Shown here in pieces: positions 2,310-49,266 of a DNA stretch of 49,266 nucleotides (the stretch's first letter is position 1; each line of letters begins with the position of its first letter). A model generated the notes under the pieces. It made no database searches. It was not told the DNA's origin and saw only the letters and a program-made list of their open reading frames with translations. This DNA is from Catajapyx aquilonaris (lineage: Eukaryota). The stretch spans positions 1 through 49,266 of the forward strand of contig KZ538764.1 in assembly GCA_000934665.2 (NCBI GenBank), given 5' to 3'. Position numbers and translations under genes: made by a program.

Positions 2310-2722
2310 CCCCCCCCCCCCCAATCTACCGGACAATTGATGCCTTACGACACCGCAGAATTTTCCAGAAACGCGGAACCGGCGCAGCAACACAAGTTTC
2401 ACGCGCAATGCTGGCAAGTATCGCATTCCTCCTCCTTTGTTGTCGCCTACAGGTATTGTCCCTTCGCCTACAGTCACGCGCAATCTCGAGTGTGCTCCAA
2501 ACAATGCTTCCCTATGAAAAACAATTACGCGTAATCGCAATCATGCATACATGCCACAAACCCCCTCGCATTTTGAAGGATTTCGATGGATCTGATCCAT
2601 AAGCGGACCCAGTAGGAAAAATCTGCCTCTTACCGCCAATTTTCCAGTCAAACGCGCTTTCATCTGCTTGAAAGTACCCGGCAATGCAAATCCTGAGGTA
2701 CGGTTCGATTGTTGGGGAAGGG

Positions 2723-3154
2723 GACGTCTTTCGCCAGTGTCCCTTCGTTCGCCAGTGTCCCTTCGTTCGCCAGTGTCCCTTCGTTCGACAGCGTCCCTTC
2801 GTTCGCCAGCGTCCCTTCGTTCGCCAGTGTCCCTTCGTTCGCCAGTGTCCCTTCGTTCGCCAGCGCTCCTTCCTTCGACAGGGTCAAATCTTGCGTTATC
2901 GTCCCATCTTCCGTTAGCGTCCCATCTTCCGATACCGCCCCATCGTTCAACACCGAGCCATCTTTGGACACCGACCCATGTTCCATATCCGTCCCATCTT
3001 CCGAATGCGTCCCATCTGCCCATACCTCCCCATCTTTCGGCACCGCCCCATGATCCATGTCCGTCCCATCCACCGACAGAGTCCCATCTTGGGGCACCGT
3101 TCCATCTTGGGACAACATCCCATCCTCCGATACCGTCCCATCCTCTGGCACCGT
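2723..3154. repeat. 18-bp period tandem array, 24 units (about 8 near-perfect CCCTTCGTTCGCCAGTGT units grading into diverged CCCATC-core units)
   Basis: 432 bp = 24x18 with no indels; long ORFs run through it on both strands. Confidence 0.9.
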
Positions 3155-6100
3155 CCGCGTCCATTCGTCCGTCAGTGTACCACGGAAAGTCCCCTCCAGC
3201 CATCCTTGCTCACTGGACTGTCTCAACTGACCCAACGCCGGTAGGTCTGACCAGAAGCCTTGAACGCAACGACTGACCTTTGGACTCGCTGAACTCTATA
3301 GCACAAATCAGGTGTCTCGCAGACTTCCAAATGACTTAACCCATCCGCATACGAAGATAACACAAGGGAGTCGGATTTCTCCTCGACTGATTCATTAATG
3401 CGAGTACTTTCAAGGTCCCTCAGAATTCTTGTTCTAACGCAAACTGCAATTGGGCAACATTGGTGGTCAATCCTGATAGGAAATAATTTTGTCTTATTTA
3501 TTGTACAATAACACTTCCATACTAATCATCAAGCCAGCAGCAAACCATTTCTGTCACATTGTTCTTGATATGAATGCGGACTCCAGGTGGTTTCCAAATG
3601 CACCCAACCTACACTTGTTACACCCTTCTATCGCTCCTGGATATAAGGTATTTGTGTACTCAACACGAACGTTGATTGACGTCACTTTTCCTAATAAAAC
3701 GGCTAAATCTCGGAAGCGCCCCGCAGCATTTTGGCTCGGCAATCAAAAAGGGGGTCGGATGAACACAATAATATTTCCACCGTCGGAAAACAATGGTAAA
3801 AGCGCAGCTGCTCGTTGAGGCTGCCGTAGTCGAACATCAATGACAGAATCGTATAATGACGGCAGTCAAGACCGAAAAAGGACGCCATCGCTAATTATAT
3901 GGAGCCAAAAAGACAAAAAGTATCATTTCGAAATGGAGTTAACTTACGCACTGTCTGAATAATATTTGAAAATGTGGTATCGACTTTTCGCTACAGCTCC
4001 CAAGGATCCTATTGCCATACCGGAAGACAGGCTACTCAATGTTTATTTTTCGCAGAAGGCCACTAAGGAACGGCAAAATGAGTACACCCATCCTTAATTC
4101 CAAAAGCTTACACGTCCAAGAATGCTGGCAAGCACATTTGTCCACGTCTACCAAAATAACTTCATTTTGAAGTAACCTCCCCGAAACCTATAGACTCTCC
4201 TCATTGACATACAGCAAATCAAAGTGACTATGCTAGCACGCAATATCCTATTCAATGGGCACAGGTAATGTGCACGTTGGGTAAATCCCGCCACGTTGCC
4301 AGATAACGCCTTTCTTTGATCTAGCGTTTGGGAGTACGACAATATATACCGAGGGGGCACTTGATATTATCTTTTTCAGCGGCTGATCACACAGCTTTTC
4401 TTCTGAATAAACCGGTTGCCTACCAACGCGTCTGAATGCACACATGGATTTTTTTTTTCTTTCTTTCTATCTCCAAAAAAACAGGTTGTTGCCATGGAAT
4501 AACCTAGCATATGCCGTGGACCAGGGCTTATCAGGTGCCCGCTCAGGGGTTTTAAAAATACAAAAACGGGATATGTTTCCACCTTTTCTACACTATAAAA
4601 GAGGGCTGGCGGCAGTGTTGAGGAATAACGGACCAATAATGGCCGCCCACTCACGCGTGAGCAAACCCTTGACGTGCGCCGTTGGAAATTAAGTACATGG
4701 ATTATCTTACAGGATGAACCTCGGCGGCATACATCCTTGAAGTTAGTTAACACCAGTTGGGAGACCTTTTCTGTGTCTCGGAGGATTGGAGTATGTGACA
4801 AATTTTTGGGCGATGAAGAAACTAATACTTACTACAGTAGATTAAATCGCTGAGAAAATATGGCAACATGGGGTGTAGATCTCGGATTATTTCCACATGG
4901 CCAAATCCTCATGGGCCTATACAGTGTGAGGAGGGGGTCCAAATTAGGATTCATGAACATGGGTTTTGCCTGGATTTCTCAACTGGCAATATTTGAGGAT
5001 TGAAGGCCATGGAGTATGACTCAACTTCTGCCTCCTTAGTAGCCCGAAGGATTACATGGCGCATTAATCACACCTATAAATGATCTACAAAGCCTAGTTA
5101 AAACGGTTCATATTCCCACCCAGAGTGTGGCTCACAATATTTAAGGCAACAATCACTTCAGACTGACACACAGCATTGCTCTGCATTATTCTCACAATTA
5201 TTTAGAAATGATGGAAAATTATTTCCATAACATGCCAATGGGATGCATAAAATGTTGCAGATTTTGCCTGAAGCACATTTATCATGAGTCATTCACCACC
5301 TCTACACTACTCATAATGCAGATAAGTTATGGAAAATCCACGGTGTAAATCAACACTTCAATTCCATTTCAGATCTCCATTAACTACAGTTTTGTGAAAC
5401 GACCCTCTCCCGTCATTCTGATTCAAAAATATACTGTATTAATTCTGTTTACTAGATACTCCAGATTTATTATCAAAGAAACATGAGGGCAGCTCATACA
5501 AGTATCGCACAGTGGCTGCGTTAAGTTATGAAAATTATGCAGTGACGTCAGTATCAGCAGGTCAGAAACTGTAAACAATTCATCGATTTATTAGGGGCAG
5601 AGTTTAATTTTTTACAATTAGCTGAATGTCAGGAGGTCAGTCTTTATCTCCCTCAGTAATTGAAGACCTCAGATATGAACCAACAGCACTTACTACTCCG
5701 CATATAGCGACCATTTTATGCGATCTTTACATCCCAAAGCAACAGATGTGAAACGGCATGCTTCGGAATTTTAACAATTGGTCCATATCACTACATTTTT
5801 GAACAGTCCAGCAAAAATTAACGATTGCCACATGGTTTATCACACTTATTGAACTTGGATGAGACAATGGACAATTCACAATAATTATTTTTCCTTTTAT
5901 TATTTGTAAATTTGTTATTATATTGTATATTTAGGAATGACTCAGGACCCATTCTTCATGCCGTAACTCTCCAAATAATGACACAAAAGGTTCCCGGACA
6001 TCACTTCATGTGGTACAGTACTTTTGTAACCCCAAGTTGACTGAAGCACGTTAAAAATCAGTAACATTGCACAAAATGACGTCGAAATTTTAGTTTGAAA

Positions 6101-6376: not shown

Positions 6377-9300
6377 CTCACAGCAGCTATTGAATAAAAG
6401 GATCAACCAGTAAGCAATTCCCATACTGCCCGAAATGTGCGCGCACCTCGCGGCTAAAAATTCAACGATTCAACTTCATCAACACATAATCTGATATCAT
6501 AAATGCTATCACATTACTCTCTCACAATTTCTGTCAATCTGAACACTCGCGCGTACGTTCCAACATATTCTATGGGCAGATAGCTTTTTTATATGTATAA
6601 CTTTGAACAGTACGTACACACGATCCGTTCATACCATACACAAGTGTTAAACATAATTACGACACAACCGCATCCCCAAAAAATGGTAATAAACAATTCA
6701 ACAAGCCCACTGATCAATAGGCATCTTTCGCCCCGTAAAAACTCGGAGATTTTTACACCTGTTATGTTTCTATCGAGCTTATTAGCCATTCTATACAGTA
6801 TCGCACAACTGCGTATCACACAAGGTCAAGGCATGTTCCTGCCACGCAGATTTCAACTTTTTTTATATATTACACGCGTTATGCCTGCTGGTCACTAACT
6901 CTTGGTGCACCCGGTAGTCAACCTTCAGTTACGCCATCCAGAAGCGCTTTTCCCAAAAACCCGCCTACGCCAACCACTTGATGTGCATTATTCAATGCTG
7001 TTAGTGTGAAATAAATCCGGAAAATTGCAACTTCAAAACCCGGAAATTGATATTTTGACATAATTTTTTTTTTACTAAAGTACCTTACACCCGGATTACA
7101 CCTAACTGTCGACGCCGGGTTCCTTCTTGCTTGACGCCAATTTTTACTCATCCTCCTCTTTTGCCGTCAGACATTTCAATAACAAAGCCGGCAATACACA
7201 AAGTATAAATACCTACTCCTTATGGAAATGTGCCAGGTGCGGGAGTTCTCTTATAAACCAAATTTACATACCCAATGCGAGTCAAACGAGAGGGAAGCGA
7301 GTGGGGGAGGGGTGCAGCAAGGGTGGGCGGGGAAGGGTGGGGGCCAGAAAAATTCGCTAGGACCAGTTTTATCGGCCGGACTTTTCGCTAATCTTGGTTG
7401 CCGTGTTTGACGGATTTTGCTCCGTTTAAGTCAGGTAATCCCTCGACAAGTAAATAAAGGTTTAAGTATCGATCGACTTGGCAATTCATTTGGCATAGTA
7501 ACTCGAGCAGGCTGGTTACTTACTGCATATTTTCACCTCCAGTCCAAATACGAACGATCTCTAAAGGACTATTAAAAACTTCGAGTACCGGAAGTGTACA
7601 AAATTGTAGAAATATGATCGCCAATTAGAGGATCGGTGGAAATTGTGACGATTGATTTTTTTGTTATCTTGGAATAACAAATTTAATACTAATATAACGT
7701 CACATGTTCAATATTATTGACATTTTTTCAGTGCTCAATATGAATCATCGAGAATCAAGATACCGTAGCCGTTAAGTTTTTATTGTAAACGTATGTTATC
7801 GATACGTAGGATTCAACAATGCAAAATATGCATTTACAATAATTGTTGGCCGGATTGAGAAAAATTCAGTGTCCAAGTTGCCTGTAATTATGGTGAGCCC
7901 AAAGGGATTAGCAACCTCGGAACATTCAGAAAAAATAAGCGCTGTTGCCAAAACAGGCCCAGGAAAACCCCATCTAGGGATGACATGTTCCTGCTTACAG
8001 AATAGACAAGATTCCATACCGAAGAGTCTGCTACAGGTCGGTTTCACTGTAATATTACTTGAGCAGATGACTGATGCTTTGATTTGCGCACCAAGATTTT
8101 TGCATTGTGCCGTACCCGTGAGTGCGTGTAATGCAACTATTCAAATCAAAAGAGTCGTAAAATGGATATGATAGGTGCCAAGTTATAATCGAGATTATAA
8201 TCGCATACGACCCGATATCTCGGAAACGAAGCACTCAGACTCTCGCCCATTACGACATCGAAGGGGAAAATGCTAAGTTTATCTAGTCAGGCAAGGTGTG
8301 ATTTCAGCAATCATTAAAATTCAACGCTTGTGGATTTAGCCCACATATCACGAGTAATTTAAGCTCGTTTACTACTTTTGATCGAAACAATCTATTTTAG
8401 AAATTGGTAATATTTAAAGTGGGGATAAGTAAGTCTACAAACAATGGCACAGTGTATTGTACCATGTCATGCCCACCCTTCCTAAAACGTGTTCTTATAA
8501 TGTTGGATCTTACACTATATCTGGGGCGATGTTATCAACCATGAGTCATCAAGCACATGCATTTTACCTGATAAAAAGCCGTTGGTAACTCCATTCCCTC
8601 CATACACTTAACTAGTTCTCAAAAAAAATACTTTCCATAAGCTGGGAATTATTCATCGAAATCGTCGATTTTAAGTCAAGAAATAAAATCCACACTTTTC
8701 CGCACATGTTAATCACTTCACAGCGTGGGAAAATTTCCCATTCTTCCTCTCTCCCCAACATATTTTTTTTCACCTATATACCACTGGATGTGATCCAGGT
8801 CCATCATTACACCAAGGCACAGAACAATAACCACAAAAATACCGCGTCTCTATTTTTAAAAAACCAGCCAAATGTGTCAAAATATTTCTTCAGTATGGCA
8901 CTTAGCACTCTGTCCAACTGCAATATTATCTATAGCTGGTGACAGCCTACTAGCGGGTTTAACTAGCAAAAAATCTGCAGGGAAAGTGATCCCCAAAAAA
9001 TGTCAACTCAACTTCCGATCCCCCTTCTCCACACCCCACCCTCCCAACGACGGGGTCCCCCATTCGCGGGGACGGGGCACTGACGCAGTGCACAAAACCC
9101 TCCCGAACTGTGGTTCAAATCCCAAAGCTCTTCTCATATGGTGTACTTATCGGTTTCTCGGTTACTCATCCGCCAAAAGCTATTTCACGTAGGTTAGGTC
9201 TGGTCGACGACCACCCCAAACGTCTTACAAACTCCGCATATTCTGTCGGTACCGCGATGCATGGAATATACGTCACAGTTTCTATTTAAATGTTACATGC

Positions 9301-44914: not shown

Positions 44915-47900
44915 CTAAGGGAACGCACCGAAAAGAGTGACACGCTGGGTATTAGCCATTGAAAAATCCGAGCATAAGATCTTCACGTCAATCTCCTGGA
45001 CTCGCTCTTTGTAGAGGTTCAGTATGGCAAGGTGATTTAAGCGCTGTTGACTTGTTGTACTACTCATGTATATGTCTTCAGCCGCCGAAGAGTCGAAAAG
45101 CTCCTCTCGGCTGTGGAAGAAGACGCTGGCACAACTAAGAGAAGCTTCAGCACTTGCCGCAAAGTTGGCATTAGCTGTCTTGTTGATTCAGCTGCATTTT
45201 TTATTGCCACAACAACGTCGTTGATGCTCGTGGGTACGGTCGGTATACTGTTTAGAAGCCTCCGCGCAATTGTCATGTCGATACCAAAGGCATCATTGTC
45301 GATGCCGTACTTAGCCAGAACTCCACCTGCAACAACATTCTTGTTGGCTGATTCCAGGACAGCTGACTCTAAGATTTGAAGATCCCGGATGTCCTCTTGG
45401 GCAAACCTGTTCTTAATCTGTGTAAATAGAACGTCCAGAACTTCGTAGTAAGTTTTTCGCATCATCTCCTTTGGCGACTCAAATGCTGTAGGGTGTGATG
45501 TACCGTTTTCTGCTTCAAATCTCCGCGGAACACGTCGTACGGGGGGGGGNNNNNGGGGGGGGGCTTCACAGGTGTCAGATGGAATTTGTGGCAGGCTTCT
45601 TCCATGGATTCCCACAGGACTGAGAATTCCTCCTCCGCTCTGTAGAAGATCCGTTGTGGTCCTCGCAGCTTCCATGGCAGCTCCCACCGTCCGATCAGGA
45701 GCTTCCAACACCAGCAGCGCCAACCTATCAGCAATGCCAAAAACCATTTCTCCAATGATCAGCCCCAGCCCCCAGCCCCCCAGGTACACATCTGATTTTT
45801 TTCAGCTGGATTAGCAGCCCTCCAGCACTGCAAGAAACATCCAGTCCAGCCTTGCTCAGTTCCTCAAGGGCCTGTAGAACTGCTGGGTAAGTCTTTAGAA
45901 CACTGCTGATGGCTTTGGCTCGGACTGTCCATCGGGTTGGGCACAGTCCTTTCGGGAGTACAGCTGGAACGTCCGCCATAATTATCTGCCACTATATTCA
46001 GAAAATCACTTCTCCGCTTGCTGGTTTTCAGTATGCATGCTACGTCGTGAACCCATTGAAGGATGTCTCTCATCAGAGGTATACTCCTGCTAGCGTCTTG
46101 AAGCGCCAAGTTCAAGCAGTGGTTTGTGCAGTCAACATACGCTGCGAGAGGTTGCTTCTTCTTGATCCGGGCCTGCACCCCAGTGTGTACGCCTCTCATG
46201 TTTGACGCCCCATCATGGCATTGGCCTCTCAAATTGTGAAAGGAGAGAGAGAAGCGAGTGAAACAATCCACAATGAGATATGTTAGAGATTCACTAGATG
46301 TACTCGCCGCCTCATAAAATCCAAGGAAAAATTCCTTTATGTCCAGGTGGTCAGTCACAATCCTCACAGATATGCCAACTTGTTCCTTCCTCGACACGTC
46401 AGTTGTTTCGTCCACGATGATGCTGAACACTCCAGCAGACCTAATTTGATTCAATAATATCCGCTCCCCGCGGAAGAAGAGCCTCGGTTGCTTTTTCACC
46501 TTGCAGTGAGGCAGAAAGAGACTCTCCGTCTTCGCCTCGTTATACTCAAGTCCCAATGCAGACGACCATCCTAGCAGGACAGGCTCCAGCTTAAGCCAAG
46601 TGTCCAGGATGGTGTCGGCGGAGGTGTTGGAAATCAGTAGGACCTGATAGTCCGCATAAGCCTGCACGTGCACACTGTCCACTGCACACTGCACACTGTG
46701 AGAATACTCGGTTTACACATTGACGCCTTTCCTGGTTCCCCCACATAAAGAAGACGGCGGCCAAGATACGCGGCTTATCATCCCGGCTGTGGAGCGTGGC
46801 AGGGCAACGCTGGGGGTTGGCACCTAGAAGCAGACTCCGAATATTGGCATCAGCAGTGCTGCCAATGCTGTTATATGGGGCCGAAGTTTGGGGCCACCGA
46901 ACGCGGGTGAAAGCGGTGAGAAGACACCTGTTGGCCGCTCTCCGCCCATTCCTACTGTCTGCGACAAGAACATACAAGACGACGCCTGGCCCTCTCCTCT
47001 GCGTGTTGAGCGGGACCATACCACCGGCATGGCACTGCAAGCGAAGGCCATTTGGGAAGCGAGGCAGAGGCTTCACTCCGAAGCTGGGGCGGGTATGGCG
47101 AGGCTTCCCGTTCCAGTGACTGAGTGAGGGACTCTCCGCCACCTTGGGAATGGAACAGGGCCTGATAGTGGCTTTTGGACGGAGGCGCCGACTGGGGTGG
47201 ATCTCCTGATCTTTACGGACGGATCAGTCATGGGGCGGAAAGCTGGAGGGGCTGTGGTGGTGATGGACGGAGGACAGCGAGTGGTCACCTGCGAAAACAT
47301 CCCTTTCAATGCACCGCACCGGCTGGCATCTTTGACGTGGAGCTGGCTATGATCGTGAGGGCCTTGGAGATCGCCTCCTCTTCTGCGCTGGAACATTCCG
47401 TTTGGGTAATCTCTGACTCCAAGTCAGGTCTTCAAACGGTGGTAAACCCACGCTCCACTAACGGATCGGCTCAATACGCACGTAGTCTGATGAAAGGTGC
47501 TAACAAGGACATCAGCCTCCACTGGGTTAAGGCACATCAAGGTACGCTCGGGAACGAGCTGGCTGATGAGGAAGCAAAGAAGGCGGCGCAGCTCACCGTG
47601 GGTCGCCGCTTCTTGCCCATATAGGCAAACCACATGCGAAAACGAGCATTCGACTCGCAAAGTCGCAAATGGAGGCCTGGCAGCGAGGGAATGGGAGATG
47701 GGGGCTGACTCGTGGTACTTCGGATTCCTTCCATCGGTATCTACAAATCGCCACATCCATGGCCACTTGGCCCGAATTGTGTCCGGCCACGGCCCCTTTA
47801 GGGCATACCTACACCGCTTCCATTTGGGAAAAGGAAAGAACCGGGACGAAGAGGATGGGGTTGAGGCGTGTTGTCAATGCGGAGATGGAGAGCAGACCCC

Positions 47901-48546
47901 AGCGCACATAATTTGGACTTGTGCTCTCCCCGAGATAGCCGCTGCCAGGGGAGAGCTGCGTAGAGCGGCTGTATCTGGTAATTTTGGATGGCCCTGTTCC
48001 AAGGAAGCCCTGATGAAGGAACTCCAATCCAGCTTCAACACGTTCTGCTTAACAGTGGATCACATCCTGGCCCCATTGAATTCCGGGAGCATCGGGAGGG
48101 GAAACAAAGTTTAGGAATCACTGATGGCTGAAGTTGGTGGATGACTGATTGCTAATGAAGGTGGTTGACTGATGGCGGTGGATGACTGATGACTTATGCT
48201 CTTGTAAATTGTATTCTGTTGAATTTTGTTTGAGAAATAAATGGGGAGGAAGGGCTGCAGGGCCACATATTGGCTTGGTCGACCGTCCAGAATTTCCATA
48301 TTAGCAGACCTAATTTCTTCCAAGATGCCTCTGAGAGTTGCATTTGCCGCAATCTTCAGCATCTCATTCTGAATGTCGTGCGAAGCCAGAGGCTTAGGCT
48401 GCTTCAGCCACCAATGGAGCTCTAGTACATCCCTCGACCTCAGCTTCAATAACTCCATGAAATTTCCCGTGTGCTGCTTGTCACTCTCACGCATAGCAAC
48501 ACCCTGTACTGGCTGTACGCCGAAGTAGATTGCGGTTGTGAAAATT
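44915..48546 (-). pseudogene. Decayed hAT-superfamily transposase (ZMYM1/FAM200-like, DUF4371 plus C-terminal dimerisation domain), frameshifted and split by a LINE
   Basis: Motifs GNFMELLKL, SHDIQNEML, FSIIVDETTDVSRKEQ, GQCHDGASNM, CTNHCLNL, CPTRW, PASSSTAERSFSTLRRLKT and RLNHLAIL lie across several frames. Removing 46448-48316 rejoins EEIRSA|GVFSIIVDE. TIRs not found. Confidence 0.9.
46448..48302 (+). mobile_element. 5'-truncated, 5'-inverted non-LTR retrotransposon (R1/LOA-like, I group) with RT remnant, RNase H and C-terminal CCHC
   Basis: 14-bp TSD AGCAGACCTAATTT at 46434-46447 and 48303-48316. Plus strand: TVRILGLHID, LPMLLYGAEVWG, RNase H (IFTDGS...SDSKS...WVKAHQGTLGNELADEEAK), SGHGPFRAYLHRF, CQCGDGEQTPAHIIWTC. 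Minus strand 46448-~46680: RT segment QAYADY. Frameshifts present. Confidence 0.92.
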
Positions 48547-49266
48547 GTGTCATCAACTAAACGTGATTAACCCAAGTCAGTTGACGTTAAAGTTTTCCAA
48601 TCACCCAAGCCACCAGAAATGATACTGACAAGTGTTCACAGTATATAAAAAGGTTTATTTAGGAGGACACTCAGAATACAGACATAGGGTTGTCTGGTTT
48701 AAACACAATTAGAAGACTAACAAACGTTGGTTACTTACACTGATGGAGCTTCTTGTAGAGTCGTCCGACTGGAGAGAGAGAGCTCAAGAGAGGCGGAAGA
48801 CGCTTTATATAGGGACCGTTTGCCCTTCAGATCAAGTAAAATCCACGTGCGTTACCTATATTAGCCTTGACTATGAAACCAATATGGACGGTACACCCGT
48901 TGTACCTGTAGAATTTTATGATAAAAAGTTGACCTCGGTTCGTCCTTGAACAATACTAGAAGAGCACTGTTCCACTCGTGTGTAAATGTTACTTATAGAA
49001 AACAACATGGCACCCTCCGTGACAAATCACCTCTCTCTCCGGAAGAAATGATGGCCAGCGCCATAATTTCTTCATTGGCGTTCATAGATAATATATATAT
49101 AATAATAATAATAATAATAACAAGGCAGAGATTGACCAAAAGAGTACATAACAAAACCGTTAAAGGACCTATGTTCTTCACGGCCGCTTCTTCGGCTCAC
49201 GGACCTTCCACACCCTCCGTGATCCCGGCTGACGTCTAGTTCCATACGGATGTTCGCTATGGTCTC

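Follow-up and report, generated by a model that had tools for sequence, protein, structure and literature searches.

How does a single retrotransposon insertion come to carry its upstream part on one strand and its downstream part on the other? The question is raised by a long interspersed nuclear element (LINE) of 1,855 bp in Catajapyx aquilonaris (assembly GCA_000934665.2, contig KZ538764.1), which lies between two 14-bp copies of a target site duplication (TSD) and whose first segment, taken from the reverse transcriptase (RT) domain, is inverted relative to the rest. We analyzed positions 1 to 49,266 of this contig (the window, 49,266 nt; coordinates without a contig label are positions in it) and compared the insert with related copies and empty target sites in other contigs. 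The best explanation, and a probable one, is that twin priming on a single RNA of an R1-like LINE produced the inverted 5' end; one such event accounts for every feature. The parts of the insert are, in order:

46434..46447, plus strand: left TSD copy, 14 bp, present as a single copy at the empty hAT sites of contigs C10571 and C9277
46448..46681, minus strand: inverted arm (234 bp), covering the RT domain from a YADD-type motif to ...ILLN, which may include 46682; 83% identity to the collinear copy C2156
46682..46691, plus strand: filler of about 10 nt at the inner junction, holding a copy of the 9-mer from 46669-46677 of the inverted arm; probably a templated insertion (upstream of the arm end the relatives have no match to it)
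46692..48302, plus strand: sense arm, 1,611 bp, comprising the RT end, connection, RNase H, CCHC finger and 3' untranslated region (UTR); broken by frameshifts
48303..48316, plus strand: right TSD copy, 14 bp, an exact repeat of the left 14-mer

An inverted segment within a duplicated target site

The insert interrupts a hAT transposase, whose two parts flank it:

45064..46447, minus strand: downstream part of the host hAT transposase (DUF4371, hAT dimerisation domain), interrupted by the LINE; from a domain search and empty-site comparison
48303..48566, minus strand: upstream part of the host hAT transposase (...LRGILEEIRSA); from translation and empty-site comparison

In contigs C10571 and C9277, which hold two other hAT copies, the window's left and right hAT flanks are joined directly, free of the LINE and in an uninterrupted reading frame (translated in C10571 as ...LRGILEEIRSAGVFSIIVDETTD...). 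The 14-mer occurs once in each of these contigs with the flanks joined, and exactly twice in the window (46434-46447 and 48303-48316). The window repeat is therefore a true duplication, and an earlier first-pass annotation of this DNA was right to mark two TSD copies.

That annotation had also placed an RT segment on the minus strand and the downstream part of the element on the plus strand, which both the translations and an alignment to a near-full relative confirm. Read on the minus strand, 46448-46681 translates as RT (VDSVHVQAYADY...RGERILLN), and the sense arm reads HTVRILGLHID from 46692; the near-full relative, C399, whose DNA is 68-70% identical to the window copy, aligns through residues 237-326 on the minus strand and residues 330-779 on the plus strand. 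Contigs C2156, C6253 and C320 each match both arms, one directly after the other and in a single orientation, and all seven relatives that were aligned across the inversion point are collinear there (for example, ELNHSMRVLGLH in C2156), indicating that both arms come from one family, in which they adjoin. In the window copy they adjoin with an overlap of 0-2 nt, and a derivation of the arms from different families, against which the earlier reading had to be checked, is not the case.

A second inverted copy and the frequency of inversion

The arrangement recurs in the genome. A second 5'-inverted copy, C2343 (L040:1349-1730), is an insert of 352 bp with a 16-bp TSD; its inverted arm (214 bp) is 97% identical to the window copy, and set against a 99%-identical collinear copy, C2562, it has microhomologies of 2 nt both at the TSD and at the inner join, with 1 nt missing between its arms. 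The inversion points of the two copies lie at different places in the family, and no other family copy shares either inversion. The exact 14-mer pair, the empty sites and this independent second copy together rule out coincidence; the empty sites and C2343 also support the first-pass proposal that a non-L1, RNase H-bearing LINE had inserted by twin priming.

The two copies likewise bear on a later inversion in place, or on inheritance from a parent copy that was already rearranged. Flipping the 5' piece in place would also yield adjoining arms, but one break would have had to fall exactly at the TSD edge, with the TSD left intact, in two independent inserts of different length and with different inversion points; inheritance is opposed by the absence of either inversion from all other copies, and we regard both origins as highly improbable. 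In another scheme, twin priming in trans, the free end of the top strand would have used a different RNA molecule of the family as its template; there is a precedent in antisense chimeras of L1 with other RNAs that have been attributed to twin priming (PMC4476161, PMC13174262). Two RNA molecules would give the arms no reason to adjoin within 1-2 nt, twice, which makes this origin extremely unlikely.

In the window copy and in C2343 alike, the inverted arm is sequence absent from the rest of the insert. This decides largely against a snap-back, in which the cDNA 3' end would have looped round to serve as primer on its own strand, giving a palindrome that later lost its sense arm. Snap-back 5' junctions published for R2 (PMC11371274) do resemble those described here, in that antisense element sequence is joined to the upstream target, and a 23-nt fold-back is present at the 5' end of C6253, a copy of a sister family. 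The R2 junctions, however, repeat sequence already in the insert, whereas the inverted arms here are additional upstream sequence, and a deletion removing the duplicated part would need, in both copies, to stop no more than 1-2 nt from where the snap-back ended; a snap-back is accordingly very unlikely.

We estimated how often the family inverts from the copies with an intact 3' end that were found by pattern search (n = 16, many of them shorter than 300 bp). Two are inverted (95% interval 2-38%), and 10 of the 16 have a TSD of at least 9 nt; wherever a TSD reaches that length (12/12 copies), it measures 9-16 bp. The 300 nt (or the remainder of the contig) upstream of 38 other matches to the family or its sister family were then screened for inverted element sequence, with the window copy and C2343 as positive controls and with C11186 excluded (the element starts at the contig end). 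Two of the 38 were flagged, neither of them of the twin type, inversions shorter than about 20 nt or outside the reference sequences being undetectable in this screen. One is C6253 (L019:3723-3783), where the snap-back-like fold-back is an inverted duplication for which no TSD was found; the other, C320, has a weak 40-nt match to a 3' UTR.

Assignment of the element to an R1-like lineage

Three further features of the sense arm enter into its placement:

47334..47588, plus strand: RNase H domain (match to Pfam PF00075 at E 1.5e-8, which passes the curated threshold)
47869..47922, plus strand: CCHC-type zinc-finger motif near the ORF2 C-terminus, recognized by eye, with no Pfam match
48115..48302, plus strand: 3' UTR that contains short GAT-rich repeats and AATAAA (48236-48241), forms a terminal stem-loop and stops at a fixed base with no poly(A), from sequence inspection

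The near-full relative C399 (3.7 kb, 14-bp TSD) carries an APE endonuclease, RT and RNase H, with two stop codons between the endonuclease and RT. Its endonuclease belongs to Pfam Exo_endo_phos_2, and all five of its PDB matches are to TRAS1 or R1Bm (2ei9, 1wdu; E 1e-14 to 4e-12), with the reservation that LOA and other clades may lack solved structures; no L1 endonuclease matched it at E up to 1e-3. The two best RT matches with an informative name are R1DM-like, from spiders (automatic names). The CPQGSSLGPLLWN motif is one that we take to be R1-like rather than LOA-like.

At the 3' end, 24 of 24 ends stop at a fixed base followed by AG (AGT 20, AGC 3, AGG 1) and none has poly(A) (0/24). Every one of the 16 copies with the intact 3' pattern ends at the same base with AG next, which bears out the tail-less end seen in the first pass. 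The terminal stem-loop (48240-48302) is predicted with z -0.98 in the window copy versus z -4.26 in C2562, which has the commoner variant; a similar 3' hairpin predicted in the sister family is not significant (z -1.12).

The target sites carry a second line of evidence. R1Bm cleaves the bottom strand at the consensus A(G/C)(A/T)!(A/G)T (Maita 2007, PMC1919474), and among 12 bottom-strand nick sites of the family, 7 match this consensus at 5/5 positions, 3 at 4/5 and 2 at 3/5 (background 0.98%). Part of the AG could belong to the end of the RNA itself, in which case the match would be overstated; the base just outside the TSD, which is independent of the RNA end, is a purine at all 12 sites (P 2e-4). 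Because the nick sites fit the R1Bm consensus and poly(A) is lacking, we attribute the inserts to the element's own protein and not to an L1 protein. On the top strand the nick falls at the endonuclease consensus at 1 of 12 sites; a consensus site there as a general feature was therefore rejected, and second nicks made by the endonuclease are not the rule. The TSD of C2343 forms a perfect palindrome that carries one ACT!GT site on each strand, the two sites lying 16 nt from each other. The ancestral TSD of R1 is 14 bp (Stage and Eickbush 2009, PMC2718515), as in the window copy and C399.

Two other assignments were rejected. The fixed 28S site that defines R1 proper (28S rDNA-specific) is not where these copies lie: 16/16 have different 3' flanks, and the window copy is in a hAT transposon. 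The L1 clade is contradicted by the lack of poly(A), by the lack of an L1-type endonuclease match and by the presence of RNase H. Animal L1 elements are not known to have an RNase H. Placed by its endonuclease, nick site and TSD, the element appears to be R1-like but dispersed; the first-pass label, R1/LOA-like, thus moves toward R1 on the strength of the endonuclease matches and the nick-site consensus. Three related families that share a fixed end without poly(A) or a tandem tail, insertion at a short C|AGT motif in agreement with the R1Bm endonuclease consensus, and a dispersed distribution (example 3' ends at 48302/48303 in the window, L021:3476 and L024:4021) may form a relaxed-specificity R1 lineage.

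Microhomology and filler at the junctions

The TSD junction is clean: in neither inverted copy do extra bases separate the TSD from the inverted arm, and a hairpin predicted at this junction is not significant (z -1.41). The first-pass annotation had read a seamless LNQTVR across the inversion point and had paired the TTT at the TSD end with an AAA found there. The first of these claims holds in so far as the arms adjoin (7/7 relatives collinear), and probably fails in its glutamine codon: the reading AAT CAA ACT borrows two A's from the TSD itself, and the codon at the inversion point is CAA in 0/7 relatives and CAC in 3/7, including the two closest. The TTT/AAA complementarity, being partly circular, is not usable as evidence; the relatives suggest 1 nt. 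In the window sense arm CAC stands directly before ACT, although the filler could have supplied it. The source likely read N-H-T-V, in which case the arms would overlap by 2 nt and the RNA would match the TSD end by 1 nt; the match would extend to 3 nt only with CAA as the source codon. A near-identical collinear copy across the window's inversion point was not found among the relatives, the best of which is 83-86% identical.

The inner junction is of a different kind. The 9-mer TGCACACTG occurs three times in the whole window, always at this junction (46669, 46683 and 46690): one copy belongs to the inverted arm and another to the filler, while the third overlaps the first bases of the sense arm. 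These are the short repeats noted in the first pass. The 8 nt that open the sense arm (5 nt if the source codon was CAA) are also present in the inverted arm, 3 nt away from its end, and the filler (46682-46691, about 10 nt) matches neither arm's source position. We infer that the filler arose by annealing at the inner-junction microhomology, with slippage. Templated insertions of this kind are known from polymerase-theta-dependent joining in Drosophila (SD-MMEJ, PMC2943611). A similar short tandem filler is present at the 5' junction of the non-inverted copy C399 (L071:~6860-6900).

Assembly support and competing explanations

Contigs from three sequencing runs, X1-X3 (594, 468 and 468 nt; depths of 47, 50 and 32), reach across the inner junction and agree with the window throughout, without mismatches or gaps, covering 46418 to 47011 or 46885. 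The junction is thus spanned in three of the four runs compared; the fourth, X5, lacks the window's inverted arm and is uninformative either way. Flanking contigs stop at 46447 at higher depth (82, 89 and 53), as expected where the empty hAT site branches off, and the TSD/inverted junction of C2343 and its 3' flank are seen as loose ends in run X5, which belongs to a different study. Among the joints listed in the run contigs none changes strand. Three other copies, C2156 (L018), C3403 (L023) and C8393 (L026), have internal deletions of about 350-550 bp, and two such skip joints are found in the run contigs too.

Several observations weigh against twin priming or against the data on which it rests. 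The TSD junction of the window copy is bridged by 30 flanking letters only, one below our 31-letter rule; no listed contig spans the whole insert; and X1-X3 represent one sample, which may be the assembly's own source. The match between primer and RNA in the window copy is probably 1 nt only, too short to exceed chance, and the 2-nt TSD-end match of C2343, too, hardly stands out from chance, whereas the match at the TSD end measures 2-5 bp in about 70% of the inverted copies of human L1 (Kojima 2010, PMC2912911). The window nick site fits the R1Bm consensus at 3/5 positions only. The number of copies is small, with 2/16 inverted in the family and 0/7 in the sister family. Finally, the breakage and reversal of an integration intermediate would give a similar geometry, adjoining arms included.

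The first of these points, with the fragmented state of the assembly (20,583 contigs), would favor a misassembly or a library chimera. The mismatch-free contigs in three runs, the coherence of the TSD with the empty sites and the sighting of the C2343 junction in another study leave such an artifact extremely improbable.

The last point defines the main rival, in which a longer cDNA or double-stranded intermediate broke once, after which end-joining by the host put the 5' piece back the other way round, between the target and the 3' piece. This route is favored by the templated filler at the inner join, which has the look of end-joining, and by the TSD microhomology of only 1-2 nt. It needs, however, a break and two joins with almost no loss of bases, twice (0-2 nt overlap in the window copy and a 1-nt gap in C2343), and the contrast between a clean TSD junction in both copies and filler at the inner join is what is expected if the TSD end was a primer. 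We judge this route to be unlikely.

Proposed course of the insertion

Twin priming, the explanation that we prefer, would have proceeded as follows. The endonuclease would nick the bottom strand at an R1Bm-like site (mostly ACT!GT, here GCT!GG, to judge from the 12 target sites), and reverse transcription would begin at the RNA's fixed, hairpin-forming 3' end. The top strand would be nicked 14 nt away before the first cDNA was complete, and its freed 3' end (the left TSD) would pair through 1-3 nt with the same RNA, about 1.6 kb from the RNA 3' end. The first cDNA would halt at the internal priming site, and the second primer would copy 234 nt further upstream, presumably on that RNA; the geometry itself is seen in the insert, and the arms would adjoin and face opposite ways because the first cDNA stops where the second primer starts. 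The cDNA ends would then be joined at the 5-8-nt microhomology, with slippage leaving the 10-nt templated filler, a step that resembles polymerase-theta/SD-MMEJ joining and that the RT itself could perform. Fill-in would complete the insert, yielding the 14-bp TSD that is present at the locus.

State and surroundings of the insertion

The sense arm contains several frameshifts (for example, a 4-nt deletion near 46716-46720), and on its sequence the window insertion is dead debris nested in a hAT transposon, with no sign of function or of an effect on the host; no RNA run is among those listed with its sequence. The hAT transposase (DUF4371 type) has at least three degraded copies in the genome, and C10571 is an allele or a paralogue of the window locus. 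A high-copy repeat starts about 250 bp to the right of the insert (window ~48550-48800; summed contig depth 240-750). Elsewhere in the window, 2541-3295 is repetitive, with open frames on both strands and, on the minus strand, tandem peptide units such as EGTLAN.

Relation to known inversions and to R1 elements

The twin-priming model was proposed for L1 (Ostertag and Kazazian 2001, as described in PMC2912911 and PMC4245944), in which 5' inversion affects 639/2,068 (30.9%) species-specific primate inserts (PMC2912911). Inverted human and chimpanzee L1 copies resemble those described here: the inverted 5' arm starts cleanly at a long TSD, the two arms do not overlap, and microhomology marks the inner join. 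Microhomology at the TSD end is present in both as well, but in the copies described here it is 1-2 nt long and too short to exceed chance. They differ from the R1-like family in having poly(A), in a TT/AAAA target as against an R1-type nick, in lacking RNase H, and in frequency (30.9% versus 2/16). TSDs of 10-20 bp have been tied to 5' inversion in L1 (Yamaguchi 2014, PMC4245944), and the TSDs of this family (9-16 bp, n = 12) fall in that L1 range. The same literature treats 5' inversion as nearly L1-specific in human cells and proposes a long (10-20 nt) exposed overhang as its requirement (PMC4245944, PMC2912911).

One 5'-inverted insert has been described for another I-group LINE, Nimb-2_DR, in chicken DT40 cells (Yamaguchi 2014, PMC4245944), which tempers the first-pass suggestion that the mechanism is new for the I group. 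That insert is similar in its I-group origin, its TSD of about 10-15 bp and its 5' inversion; it differs in being one event of a zebrafish element in heterologous cultured cells, whereas we describe two natural genomic insertions. With R1Bm and TRAS1 the family shares endonuclease similarity, a TSD of about 14 bp and the bottom-strand nick A(G/C)(A/T)!(A/G)T (PMC1919474, PMC2718515), but it is dispersed at a short motif, where they are restricted to 28S rDNA or telomeric repeats. The word 'inversion' occurs in the main text of PMC2718515 solely as part of a reference title. A literature search, with partial coverage (mostly titles and the starts of abstracts), found no report of natural twin-primed copies in the R1 clade, and the available text of PMC5389967, PMC4476161, PMC13174262, PMC6895275, PMC3812793 and PMC4686597 contains no case of non-L1 inversion. 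What we describe is a known mechanism, in a clade for which no report of it was found.

Implications for R1-like elements

With TSDs of 9-16 bp and two inverted copies, this R1-like family agrees with the overhang rule and speaks against a restriction of 5' inversion to L1 or to mammals; nor is such inversion barred by an RNase H domain or by a missing poly(A) tail. The implication is that R1-type elements can make the second nick while the first strand is still being synthesized; a purified endonuclease exists for R1Bm, so the timing of the nicks is testable. On balance, and by a modest measure, we favor the broader view that twin priming is regular (about one copy in ten) for this R1-like LINE, which encodes RNase H and lacks poly(A), in the host where it naturally occurs. 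What matters would then be a wide stagger between the nicks and an early cut of the second strand, with no need for factors of L1 or of mammals, and the palindromic target of C2343 would be a natural case of the element's own endonuclease making both primers.

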